A DNA stretch of 64,000 nt from Candidatus Undinarchaeota archaeon (GTDB taxonomy: Archaea; SpSt-1190; JASMDC01). The stretch spans positions 32,001 through 96,000 of the forward strand of contig CAZFHY010000012.1 in the NCBI GenBank assembly GCA_964519305.1, written 5' to 3'. The notes under the pieces were generated by a model, which was given only the letters and a program-made list of their open reading frames with translations, was not told the origin of the DNA and did not search any database. Below are positions 54,838 to 57,800 of this stretch, piece after piece; within the stretch, counting starts at the first letter, position 1; each line of letters begins with the position of its first letter. A program made the position numbers and the translations under genes.

Positions 54838-57800
54838 ATGGGAAGGTACCTTGTTGCCATCATGCTCGTCATCCTTTTCCTGGGTGCGAACCACTTCATG
54901 GCGTACCGCGCCTCTACCATGGAGGAGCGCATCGACCAGTACGACACCATCGTCCTGGGTCAGGCTGCAGTACAGCCGGGCGCGCCACAGGCCATCCGAG
55001 TAGTGGCCCGCCACGTCGGTACCGACAAGCCGCGTCCCGACGAGGCAGTCAAGGTCTACATCGCGTCCAAGGACAAGCCGCGCGAGAAGAAGCTCATGTT
55101 CGAGGGCAAGACTAACACGGAAGGGACCTCAGCGCCCAAGTTCGTCGCGCCAGAGGAGGAGGGCACCTACACGCTCATCATCGAGTCGGGGACCGATACT
55201 CACGAGGCGGTCCTGACCGTGAAGCGCAAGGCCAAGGTGCTCCTTTCCACGGACAAGCCCCTCTACCAGCCCGGACAACTGGTGCACGTGCGCGCTCTTG
55301 CTCTCTCCTCCATCGACGCCAGGCCCCTTGCCGCCACGAACGCCACCTTCGAACTGGAGGATCCCAAAGGCAACAAGGTGTATCGCAAGGTCATCACCAC
55401 GAGCGAGTACGGGATCGCGTCGGTGAGCATTGCGCTGGCCCCCGAGCTAATACTCGGCAGGTACAGGGTGACCGTTACGGCCAACGGGGTCGAGAGCCAG
55501 AAGAGCATCAGAGTAGAGCGGTACGTCCTTCCCAAGTTCAGGGTGGCCCTGGAGACCGACCGCTCGTTCTACAAACCGAACGACAAGCTCGAGGGGACCA
55601 TCACCGCCAGGTACTTCTTCGGTAAGCCCGTCTCCAAGGGCGAGGCCGAGGTCGTGTTCTATACCGTGGACATCGCCGAGCGCGAGCTCCACTCGTGGAA
55701 GGGCACGACGGACGAGATGGGCCAGGTCAAGTTCACTTACACCCTGCCCGCGGCGTTCCACGGCACCGAACTGGAGAAAGGCAGCGCCCTTCTCTTCCTG
55801 AACGTCTCTGTCACCGACAGGGGCGACCACGCAGAGGAGATCGTCCGCCAGTTCCCCATCTCTACCTCGGACATCGTCATAGACATCATCCCCGAGAGCG
55901 GACATCTGAACTTCAACTTCCTCAACGTCATGTACGTGGCGACCTCGACACCCGACGGTGTACCGGTCCCCGCGACGGTGGAAGTGAACGGTGACACCGA
56001 CTTCACGACCACCATAAAGACCGGGAACCTCGGCCTCGGTTCGTTCAAGTTCAGGCCCGAGAACAGCAATCCTCTGCTCATCCTCGAAGCCACGGATGCG
56101 GAGAGGCGCACAGGCAGCAAGAAGTGGCGCTATAGAGAGGGACGCGAACGGCGCGACTACGAGCTCGAGCGGAGCACCATCCTCGTCCGCACCGACCGGG
56201 GTGTGTACCGGGTCGGCGACACGGCGACGGTCACCGTGCTCCATTCAGGGGCATCACCGGCAGCCTACGTCGACCTGGTCAAGGACGGACAGACCGTGGA
56301 CGCTCGGTCCATCTCCCTAAAAGAAGGACAAGGGGAGGCGGTGTTCGATATCGACGCCTCGATGGCAGGCCAGCTGATCGTGCATGCCTATCACACCACT
56401 CGCAGCACTACGGTGGAGCGGGCCACGCGACGTATCGTGGTGCTCCCCGCGGACCAGCTCGCTGTGTCCGTAGGGACGGACCGGGAAAGCTACAAACCGG
56501 GAGAGTTCGCCAAGCTCAGCGTGGCCACGGAGCGTAAGGGCGAGGGTGTCCCCGCTGCCGTGGGGCTCACCATCGTGGACGAGTCGGTGTTCGCCCTCGA
56601 GGAGGCCAAGGCCGGGTTCGAGCGTATGGCGTTCTACTTGGGCCGCGAGCTCGCGAAACCCAGGTTCACGGTGTACGGGTTCAATCCCATGGCTCCCGAG
56701 CGGCCAGCACCGGTCCCTGACGTCGTCAAGGTGGAAGAGGACATCCAGATCGCCGAGCAGGTGTTCCTGGCGCGCAATGCGCCCGATGCGAAGATCGGTA
56801 AGTTCGGCATCCAGGTCTCTACACGCGAGGAGAAGGAGGCCCAAGTGAAGGAAGCGAAACGCTCGTTCTACCGTAACCAATCCCTTCTGCTGTCCCTCGT
56901 GTGCCTTCTTGCAGGGCTCGCGAGCGTGGGCGCTTTCGTCCGTGGGACCGAGGAGGGGCGTTGGGCCGCTATCAAGGACCTTGTCAAGGGCGTGGTCCTG
57001 GTCGGAGTCGTAATCGGTTCCCTGATCGCGTTCGTCTACATGCTCGACTGGGTGGACGACGGTATCCGCGACATCAACTATCGGGAGCGCGGAGGGCCGC
57101 AGGGCGTGCTGCTCCTCACGTTCTTCCTGATGAGCGTCACCCTCTGGCGGCTCCAGCATGTTCGGGCCGCCGGGTTCTATGCCCGCTTCATCGCAGGCAT
57201 CCTCTTCCCCATCGCCGTGCTCGGTATCATGGCGGCAGGCACTATGGTGCGCAGTCCGATCGTGATAGTCGCGTGCGTCGCGGTCCTTGGAGCGTACGTC
57301 CTCAGATCGCTCTTCACGCTGTACAACGCCGCGGTCACGGACACGGTGCTCTCGGGTGTCAAGAACCACCTCTTCGCCCTTGTGGTCTTCATGATGGTGA
57401 TCATCGCCATGCCGGTCATCTTCTCCTATACCCATGACAATCCTTTCGACGAGGATAGGACCACGGTCGTCTTCTTACTTGCCTCGACTCTCCTGATGCT
57501 CCCGTTCTCCGGGCTAGCGGCCAGGAACATGCGCCAGCACACGAAGCTCGCCCTGCCAATGCTGATCTCCGCGTTCGGCATCGCACTACCGCTCCTCATC
57601 CTCAGCTTCTTCATGATGGCGATGCCCGCCATTCGGAGCGTCAATATGGGGATGCAGGACGAGGTGTCCGACACCATGCGCGAGCGCATCCTGAACGACA
57701 TCAAGAGCGCTCCTGAGAAGCAGATCATGACGTCGTTCTCCATGGGCAAGGGGGATATGGAGGTCGAGTTCCTGGACGAGGCTGGTGGCGATGGCGCCGA

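Follow-up and report, generated by a model that had tools for sequence, protein, structure and literature searches.

An A2M gene with a split bait-carrying domain

A gene for an alpha-2-macroglobulin (A2M) of the thioester-bearing type is found in the 64,000-nucleotide stretch of DNA analysed here (hereafter the window; contig CAZFHY010000012.1, positions 32,001 to 96,000, GenBank assembly GCA_964519305.1), which derives from an archaeon assigned to Candidatus Undinarchaeota. The evidence set out below supports its reading as an intact, eukaryote-like thioester A2M with a polytopic membrane domain inside the macroglobulin (MG) domain that carries the bait. The open reading frame (ORF) extends in a single uninterrupted frame from a GTG at 54769 to 59976 on the plus strand (1735 codons), and residue numbers are counted throughout from this GTG. 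The true start is most likely the ATG at 54838 (M24), giving a product of 1712 amino acids (aa), because three homologues begin at the equivalent Met: P0003 and P0004 (near relatives from other assemblies, 90% identical overall to the window protein, P0001) and the orthologue from G001, a sister species in the same genus as the window genome, G000. The features of the gene are collected in Table 1.

Table 1. Features of the A2M gene in the window (nucleotide positions on the window; residues numbered from GTG 54769; KD, Kyte-Doolittle).
Feature	Position	Strand	Evidence or remark
Candidate archaeal TATA-box-like element TTTAATAT	54810..54817	+	read by eye, 21 nt 5' of ATG
A2M/thioester protein gene	54838..59976	+	homologues P0003/P0004 and G001 orthologue begin at equivalent Met
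N-terminal hydrophobic segment, aa 27-45	54847..54903	+	mean KD 2.05
MG2 (aa 157-249) and MG3 (aa 251-324)	55237..55740	+	PF01835 E 2.2e-30, PF17791 E 6.8e-12
A2M_BRD match, aa 473-610, ends VDESVFAL	56185..56598	+	PF07703 E 3.9e-12
Pre-bundle soluble part, aa 611-700	56599..56868	+	two helices, two disordered stretches; common to helix-free relatives
Eight-helix hydrophobic bundle, aa 703-960	56875..57648	+	hydropathy, AlphaFold2, Lys/Arg bias, dN/dS 0.227
Helix 8 extension, predicted outside membrane, aa 961-986	57649..57726	+	25/26 columns identical in three species
Disordered acidic linker, aa 987-1014, candidate bait	57727..57810	+	pLDDT under 50; 14/28 columns identical, three species
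RVRAFFPET motif and A2M Pfam domain (aa 1028-1113)	57817..58107	+	Pfam, alignment to human A2M, model superposition
TED, aa 1231-1521	58459..59331	+	PF07678 E 4e-37, 128.4 bits (cut-off 22)
A2M_recep (MG8, receptor-binding type), aa 1645-1725	59701..59943	+	PF07677 E 5.5e-12, 46.6 bits (cut-off 21.7)

The MG2, MG3, A2M_BRD and A2M matches all score above the Pfam cut-offs. The A2M_BRD match covers the MG domains on the N-terminal side of the insert, among them the first half of the domain that carries the bait; the region at 57817..58107 comprises the second half of this split domain followed by the next MG domain. The split is delimited by the motifs VDESVFAL (aa 603-610, nt 56575-56598) and VRAFFPETL (aa 1017-1025, nt 57817-57843), and a Pfam scan found no family within aa 611-1027, to which an NCBIfam scan adds none; Pfam matches to ANATO and to T2SSG (PF08334) are likewise absent from the window protein. 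The GCFEQ thioester motif is intact at aa 1247-1251 (58507-58521, Cys codon TGC), as the preliminary description of this stretch, made from the letters alone, had already read it, and thioester formation and covalent trapping of proteases are the functions predicted for the protein. That description had also placed about 250 aa with eight hydrophobic segments between the two motifs (56878-57633, corresponding to aa 704-955). The eight segments stand, while the interval itself amounts to 406 aa (611-1016), and the smaller figure applies to its hydrophobic part only.

At the N-terminus, the hydrophobic segment may serve as a signal-anchor or as a cleaved signal peptide; nearly all homologues also start with such a segment, and no lipobox Cys is present in it (aa 24-50). 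The element TTTAATAT upstream of the ATG is a candidate for a putative promoter element serving a leaderless or short-leader mRNA.

The hydrophobic bundle

Eight hydrophobic peaks are observed in aa 703-960 (Kyte-Doolittle scale, 19-residue window), with means of 1.5-2.8, the weakest being the third (aa 780-798, mean 1.51). Apart from these and the N-terminal peak, two marginal windows reach 1.5 (aa 1070-1088 and 1640-1659). The assignment of transmembrane segments rests on hydropathy, on an AlphaFold2 model and on the Lys/Arg bias of the loops. In the AlphaFold2 model of aa 611-1016 (43-row alignment; mean predicted local distance difference test score, pLDDT, 72.6; predicted template modelling score, pTM, 0.62) each of the eight hydrophobic segments forms a helix of 20-53 residues, with helix 1 beginning as an amphipathic lead-in at aa 686 and helix 8 extending to aa 980. 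In the model, the part of the insert ahead of the bundle contains two short helices, at aa 612-629 and 652-669, along with disordered stretches at 631-649 and 670-683. It is here that insert positions G6, F12 and P21 are invariant in the alignment of 43 sequences; the conserved columns of the insert are confined to the pre-bundle helices and to the final Pro-Arg, and within the bundle one column only, a Leu at insert position 251, reaches 90% conservation, with no conserved polar column at that level.

No specific fold match was found for the bundle. A Foldseek search of the PDB with the bundle gave no match at E <= 0.001, and an exhaustive structural scan (VIA) of the bundle gave a best Z of 11.1, to designed helical repeats, a score rated generic for helix bundles; such generic helical-bundle and designed-repeat matches do not exclude any family. 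At the sequence level, a phmmer search of 1.84 billion representatives with the insert returned two proteins, both A2Ms (P0004 at 81% identity, and P0005 at 26%, E 3.4e-10), a word search returned three proteins, the window's own among them, and the ESM Atlas yielded no usable match to the insert and no feature match. Since the bundle is too divergent to be traced by sequence, the architecture was traced through its flanking domains combined with a hydropathy scan.

The distribution of charged residues is in accord with an orientation in which both macroglobulin halves lie outside the cell. With the N-terminal half taken as outside, the eight-helix proteins carry a mean of 12.2 Lys+Arg in their four inner loops versus 3.2 in the three internal outer loops, and the six-helix proteins a mean of 8.3 versus 2.0; inner exceeds outer in 10/10 and 58/58 proteins, respectively (the tally excludes three proteins in which 3, 4 or 7 segments had been counted). 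Lys/Arg-rich inner loops are the hallmark of the positive-inside rule. In the window protein, the would-be cytoplasmic loops are 8-18 residues long, two of them very basic, and Pfam detects no cytoplasmic domain. Helix counts across lineages are 2, 4, 6 and 8, plus one ambiguous case of 3 or 4. The earlier suggestion that an even number of helices keeps both halves on the same side is thus consistent with the out-out arrangement to which the Lys/Arg bias points.

In the helix that follows the bundle (57649-57726), a 16-residue stretch is identical to one in a 277-aa cysteine-rich, pilin-like protein encoded in the same genome (G000:C5:159012-159152; locus L005, 892-1725, minus strand), where it directly follows the N-terminal hydrophobic helix. 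A weaker copy occurs in a third gene (G000:C26:32509-32616). The G001 counterpart also matches the motif, distant homologues such as P0005 are without it, and the 277-aa protein itself matched no Pfam family. The motif may be a stalk module shared within this lineage, or it may have spread by an exchange of segments.

Position of the insertion and a retained bait

An AlphaFold2 model of aa 470-1130 (52-row alignment; mean pLDDT 71.4) shows beta-strands on both sides of the insert, with a pTM of 0.42, as a consequence of which its inter-domain geometry is unreliable. Within this model, 157 residues drawn from both sides of the insert (range 94..661) superpose on residues 858..1070 of the E. coli A2M, with deviations of 2.6 Å (4rtd, Z 11.8) and 2.8 Å (4ziq, Z 12.1); this stretch is continuous in the E. 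coli protein, the structure being that of the protease-activated form. Superposition on A2ML1 gives a Z of 13.7 (root-mean-square deviation 6.8, 200 aligned). Since residues from both sides superpose on one continuous stretch, the model places the 406 residues as an insertion within the bait-carrying MG region. The two ends of the insert must therefore meet in space, which requires an even number of membrane passes. On the C-terminal side, the closing motif PRVRAFFPETLY aligns to human A2M 729-741, and the human bait region is annotated, in what we take to be the same precursor numbering, as ending at residue 728.

Conservation within the insert is uneven. When ten segments were scored by the share of columns identical across three close species, the two macroglobulin halves gave 0.88-0.89, the bundle 0.72 and the post-bundle helix (aa 961-986) 0.96, with the lowest value of all, 0.50 (14/28), being that of aa 987-1014. 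This linker is acidic and, in the model, disordered, and it stands directly before the RVRAFFPET motif in the chain; a similar low-complexity stretch precedes FFPET in helix-bearing and helix-free relatives alike. Because it is predicted to be disordered, evolves fast and lies just ahead of the motif found after the bait in human A2M, aa 987-1014 is probably a retained bait. The preliminary description had set the bundle at the bait position. An insertion in the bait-carrying MG domain agrees with this, but the bundle would not simply take the place of the bait, given that the linker remains.

Authenticity of the layout

The G001 orthologue has the same length of 1712 aa and is 83% identical over the insert. 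For this G000/G001 pair, the ratios of nonsynonymous to synonymous substitution (dN/dS, Nei-Gojobori) are 0.125 for the N-terminal half, 0.118 for the pre-bundle part, 0.227 for the bundle and 0.098 for the C-terminal half, which supports purifying selection on the whole layout. In addition, positions 56300-58100 are recovered in one piece, with 0 differences and no joint, in four single-run assemblies from two studies; these four runs may be the source samples of the window, and their support concerns the assembly rather than an independent occurrence.

An assembly chimera, a frameshifted pseudogene or a chance hydrophobic stretch might be suspected in a metagenome-type assembly of 42 contigs with 4.29% contamination. 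Against such an artefact stand the uninterrupted frame, the G001 orthologue of equal length, the relatives P0003 and P0004 from other assemblies, the bridging of both junctions without a difference in the four single-run assemblies, dN/dS values of 0.10-0.23 throughout and 70 other homologues that share the layout, and its probability is regarded as negligible. A chimera, the check that the preliminary description had called for, is excluded, as far as sequence data allow, by the orthologue, the single-run assemblies and the substitution ratios taken together. The gene and its layout are real and conserved, and they constitute an apparently undescribed variant of a well-known protein family.

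Distribution among the nearest homologues

Of the 7996 candidates scored in a whole-protein search, 718 reached E <= 1e-10. The top 120 of the 718 were examined and, after removal of P0002 (a 1517-aa copy of the window product) and addition of P0001 and P0005, 121 proteins were aligned, with hydrophobic segments counted between the alignment columns of VDESVFAL and FFPET. Three to eight such segments are found in 71/121 of these nearest homologues. Six segments occur in 58 proteins, eight in 9 (10 with the window protein, which shows seven at a threshold of 1.6 and eight at 1.4), five in 1, four in 1 (four helices by eye) and three in 1 (P0085, three or four by eye); the remaining 50 proteins have no segments. 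Few of the helix-bearing proteins have named sources, these being Anaerolineae (P0025, P0057) and Chloroflexi (the cluster of P0034), and the helix-bearing loci L008-L010 come from metagenome-assembled genomes labelled Chloroflexota, Anaerolineae or Chloroflexia. The named helix-free sources are Armatimonadota, Hydrogenedentes, Poribacteria, WOR-3 and Firmicutes. A search for related loci, from which the window's own genome was excluded, confirmed 4/597 pattern matches, the confirmation having relied on the divergent insert.

In a FastTree phylogeny of the 121 proteins from which the insert columns had been removed, a single branch with a support of 100 separates the 50 helix-free proteins from all others, so that the presence or absence of helices needs one change only. 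Among the helix-bearing proteins, the window protein groups with P0003 and P0004 on a branch of length 1.01. A FastTree topology with long branches is to be read with caution. In the helix-free proteins, the interval measures 212-287 residues and aligns to a DPWG...GPDG...DDI pattern, identified by Pfam as T2SSG, the globular domain of the GspG pseudopilin, in 4/5 proteins tested (P0121 aa 766-842, P0022 aa 822-861, P0118 aa 681-758 and P0097 aa 653-736); in the fifth, P0053, no T2SSG was found at E <= 0.01. A literature search found no paper that unites 'macroglobulin' and 'pseudopilin'.

Two of the bacterial six-helix loci have a further peculiarity, in that the codon of the thioester Cys is an in-frame TGA (L008:9684-9686 and L009:9699-9701). 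The TGA is followed, thirteen nt downstream, by a hairpin with a perfect 7-bp stem and the loop GGU, and the 38 nt from the TGA onward are identical in the two loci, with differing flanks. These loci are candidates for a selenocysteine ('selenoester') A2M with a bacterial element resembling a selenocysteine insertion sequence; no report of a selenocysteine A2M was found in the literature, as judged by title or abstract.

Other archaea and the organism

The TED family is matched in 24/401 archaeal genomes sampled, G000 included, in keeping with the earlier remark that an archaeal A2M is uncommon. Such proteins are already known, PMC8416519 describing 27 archaeal A2M homologues from 24 genomes, with signal peptides and varied architectures. 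Among 15 further archaeal A2M frames read here, from 15 loci, 5/15 carry hydrophobic helices in the same interval, with two each in G385, G023, G296 and G382 (one in G023 by the automatic threshold, two by eye) and six in G047; the ten without helices are those of G200, G238, G372, G381, G324, G232, G119, G366 and G343 and a second G001 copy of 1558 aa. The architecture is accordingly not rare, given the hairpins or bundles in these five archaeal genes and in 71 of the 121 nearest homologues. A 67-row tree (FastTree, with several long branches) places the archaeal proteins mostly outside the group formed by all P-numbered homologues, and on it the helix trait needs at least three changes; accordingly, either hairpins and bundles at the bait position arose more than once, or they are ancient and have frequently disappeared.

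The window assembly comprises 3.63 Mb in 42 contigs (99.83% complete, 4.29% contamination), and the best Rfam models for its rRNA operon are archaeal SSU (1508 bits) and archaeal LSU. Sequencing runs that contain this stretch are labelled marine or seawater metagenomes. The phylum is represented by 17 species in the reference set, and the gene is found in the window's genus only (G000 and G001, 3.6-3.8 Mb); with the C-terminal half as query, no match was obtained in the 15 other species (0.6-1.2 Mb, 72-94% complete). G000 and G001 represent either a large-genome lineage among very small genomes or a problem of binning or classification (contamination 4.29% and ~6%, respectively). Another frame with a TED match, 2497 aa long (E 4.8e-20, G000:C1:363042-363686, L002), is present in G000, in which a motif scan of this frame found neither CxEQ nor FFPET; the frame has hydrophobic segments near aa 2093 and 2123. 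The additional helix-free A2M of 1558 aa in G001 (G001:C11:46015-46869, L051) carries GCGEQ and was not found in G000 with these queries.

Genomic context

The neighbours of the gene are a divergent DUF498 gene (53898-54950, minus strand) and a convergent DUF4382 gene (60028-60660, minus strand), with TrkA-type, scramblase/LOR-like and GNAT genes further out. No conserved operon partner was found in the window, and none of the 10 flanking ORFs scanned contains a transglycosylase/transpeptidase (pbpC-type) Pfam domain. The upstream synteny is kept in G001, and the downstream genes differ. An ORF of at least 681 aa (61956-63998, plus strand), without a Pfam match at E <= 0.001, runs off the end of the window; the corresponding downstream position in G001 is occupied by an ORF of 2032 aa.

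Comparison with known thioester proteins

The closest relatives of known structure are eukaryotic (phmmer against the PDB: A2ML1 3.5e-63, CD109 1.3e-60, human A2M 4.4e-60). With human A2M, A2ML1 and CD109 (6tav, 7q1y, 8s3o) the window protein has in common the domain order, the C-terminal domain of receptor-binding type and the CxEQ motif. The bait of human A2M is short and soluble (~40 residues), and CD109 is tethered to the membrane by a C-terminal lipid (glycosylphosphatidylinositol, GPI) anchor. In contrast to these eukaryote-type A2Ms, which lack a membrane-spanning segment inside the chain, the window protein has at this point 406 residues with eight hydrophobic helices. YfhM of E. coli is matched at E 2.6e-07 over aa 1031-1112 only. 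The E. coli YfhM/ECAM and Salmonella A2M proteins (4ziq, 4rtd, 5a42, 4u48) are prokaryotic, monomeric, thioester-bearing, membrane-associated protease traps, as the window protein is predicted to be; ECAM is an N-terminal lipoprotein that is often encoded beside pbpC, whereas the window protein has no lipobox Cys, no pbpC-like neighbour and an internal membrane bundle.

Complement offers a precedent for placing a domain here. The proteins C5, C3 and C4 match the window protein at E 1e-23 to 1e-29, and their ANA domain is a folded helical domain in the same MG6 interval, beside the activating cleavage site. ANA is a small, soluble four-helix bundle that is released on cleavage; the bundle of the window protein is hydrophobic instead and gives no ANATO match.

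The helix-free T2SSG sister group is 42-45% identical to the window protein over the C-terminal half and shares with it the VDESVFAL...FFPET boundaries, the pre-insert helices and the low-complexity linker before FFPET, differing in that the interval is without hydrophobic segments and, in 4/5 proteins tested, holds a T2SSG domain. Compared with the six-helix A2Ms of Chloroflexota, the window protein has the same insertion point, an even helix number and the same Lys/Arg bias. Identity over the insert is ~20%, and the extra pair of helices aligns after helix 2, in an alignment that is itself uncertain; the window protein and its two near relatives, moreover, are archaeal and occupy a long branch of their own. 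In the literature searched (titles and the starts of abstracts), no description of membrane-spanning segments inside an A2M was found, although the figure or supplements of PMC8416519 might show some. What is apparently new comprises the eight-helix archaeal form, the hairpin and bundle forms in other archaea, the pseudopilin-domain sister group and the retained, fast-evolving linker.

A protease trap stitched into the membrane?

The reading that we favour, and to which we give about an even chance of being correct, is that of a surface protease trap that is stitched into the cytoplasmic membrane beside its retained bait. In such an arrangement, the N-terminal hydrophobic segment (anchor or signal peptide) would be followed by MG1-MG6a on the outside, after which the chain would cross the membrane eight times and re-emerge as the conserved helix and the 28-residue disordered acidic linker, with MG6b, MG7, CUB/TED and the C-terminal domain continuing outside. 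The bundle, passive and constrained in its structure, would act as an anchor that keeps both the bait and the MG domain carrying it at the membrane surface. The linker of aa 987-1014 would serve as the bait, and its cleavage by a foreign protease would release the tether and allow the macroglobulin body to rearrange, upon which the GCFEQ thioester would bond the protease covalently. The resulting complex would remain attached to a cell which, lacking an outer membrane, could not keep hold of a trap that was soluble or tethered by a lipid. Gram-negative bacteria hold their A2M as a lipoprotein in the periplasm, a solution that is closed to single-membrane cells, and the envelope of Chloroflexota is likewise without an outer membrane. 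The design would therefore suit cells that lack this layer, for example archaea and Chloroflexota. On this idea, helix-bearing forms would be expected in single-membrane lineages and pseudopilin-domain forms in those with two membranes; the few source names available fit such a division, apart from one helix-free protein labelled Firmicutes.

Several observations weigh against this proposal or limit it. Hydropathy and AlphaFold models fall short of proving membrane insertion, which is itself predicted. The relatives that enter the Lys/Arg count are kin rather than independent samples, and P0085, with three helices by window and an ambiguous three or four by eye, would break the even-number rule if its number were truly odd. 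The substitution ratios rest on a single species pair, and in that same pair the whole of aa 961-1016 has a dN/dS of 0.155, which is not elevated. The disordered stretches before the bundle (631-649 and 670-683) could be an alternative bait. Since the presumed cut lies after the bundle, the C-terminal fragment that bears the thioester would be held by non-covalent contacts only. Finally, six or eight helices exceed the needs of an anchor, given that other archaeal A2Ms manage with two, and the extra helices may do more.

There are three alternatives to the favoured reading. The preliminary description had entertained a receptor linking thioester activation with the membrane. On this view, the packing of the bundle would shift when the bait is cut or the thioester fires, and a partner in the cytoplasm or the membrane would read the change, making the protein a sensor of proteases outside the cell. 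A2M and C3 undergo a large rearrangement on activation, and the bundle is joined to the very part of the A2M that moves most; it is, besides, under purifying selection and has more helices than anchoring needs. The idea is weakened by would-be cytoplasmic loops of just 8-18 residues, by the lack of a cytoplasmic domain and of any conserved polar or charged column in a bundle whose one column at 90% is a Leu, and by a gene that stands alone between divergent and convergent neighbours, with no signalling domain among the 10 flanking ORFs scanned and with downstream neighbours that differ between G000 and G001. Such a signalling receptor is therefore considered distinctly unlikely. A bundle with an activity of its own (a channel, transporter or membrane enzyme), which the A2M scaffold would regulate or localise, draws on the presence of six to eight helices and on the conservation of their number within clades, and is contradicted by the lack of any Pfam or NCBIfam family in aa 611-1027, by phmmer matches that are both A2Ms, by the ESM Atlas result, by the lack of a specific fold match or conserved polar residue and by helix numbers that range from 2 to 8 across lineages; we regard it as highly improbable. 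More generally, a role of the bundle as an enzyme, a transporter or a self-sufficient signalling domain is unlikely because it has no conserved polar residue and no cytoplasmic domain and because its helix number varies from two to eight.

The third alternative retains the anchor and changes the target. Complement C3/TEP opsonins and the thioester adhesins of Gram-positive bacteria use their thioesters for tagging or attachment, and the window protein could be a covalent tagging or adhesion device of this kind, its thioester bonding the surface of a virus, a competitor or a partner cell and its bundle fixing it to the producer. In agreement with this, its sequence is nearer to eukaryotic A2M/CD109/TEP/complement proteins than to E. 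coli YfhM (E 1e-60 versus 2.6e-07), genomes in the phylum of the organism are small, and PMC8416519 discusses archaeal A2M homologues as possible components of immunity or conflict. The architecture is, however, commonest in bacteria labelled Chloroflexota, the window genome of 3.6 Mb is not that of a reduced symbiont, the small genomes of the phylum (15/15) are without the gene with this query, and nothing in the data separates the classes of target; we consider this device rather unlikely.

Implications

A2M, complement C3/C4/C5, the insect TEPs and bacterial ECAM are textbook examples of soluble or lipid-tethered machines that are triggered through a free loop. Here, the trigger region would be threaded through the membrane, and the threaded form is that of the majority of the nearest homologues (71/121) and recurs in unrelated archaeal lineages. 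The findings further show the MG6 interval as a hot spot for domain insertion, which holds a soluble bait, ANA, a pseudopilin domain or membrane hairpins and bundles. The layout also raises the question of how a 190-kDa exoprotein inserts 8 internal helices after ~680 exported residues, and it makes two matters testable: whether bait cleavage and the large A2M rearrangement can proceed with both ends of the bait region fixed in the bilayer, and whether cells without an outer membrane have an envelope defence against proteases that differs from the periplasmic lipoprotein of Gram-negative bacteria.

A bolder proposal, which we hold to be improbable, is that the bundle forms the operative connection in a complement-like surveillance device of prokaryotes. 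Cleavage or firing on the outside would be passed on mechanically through the six or eight helices, either to a partner or to the membrane, which might for example be opened or perturbed. If this were true, the window protein would be the first member of the A2M family to signal or act across a membrane, and the recurrence of the architecture with 2, 4, 6 or 8 helices in archaea and Chloroflexota would mark an ancient envelope-immunity module of single-membrane cells.

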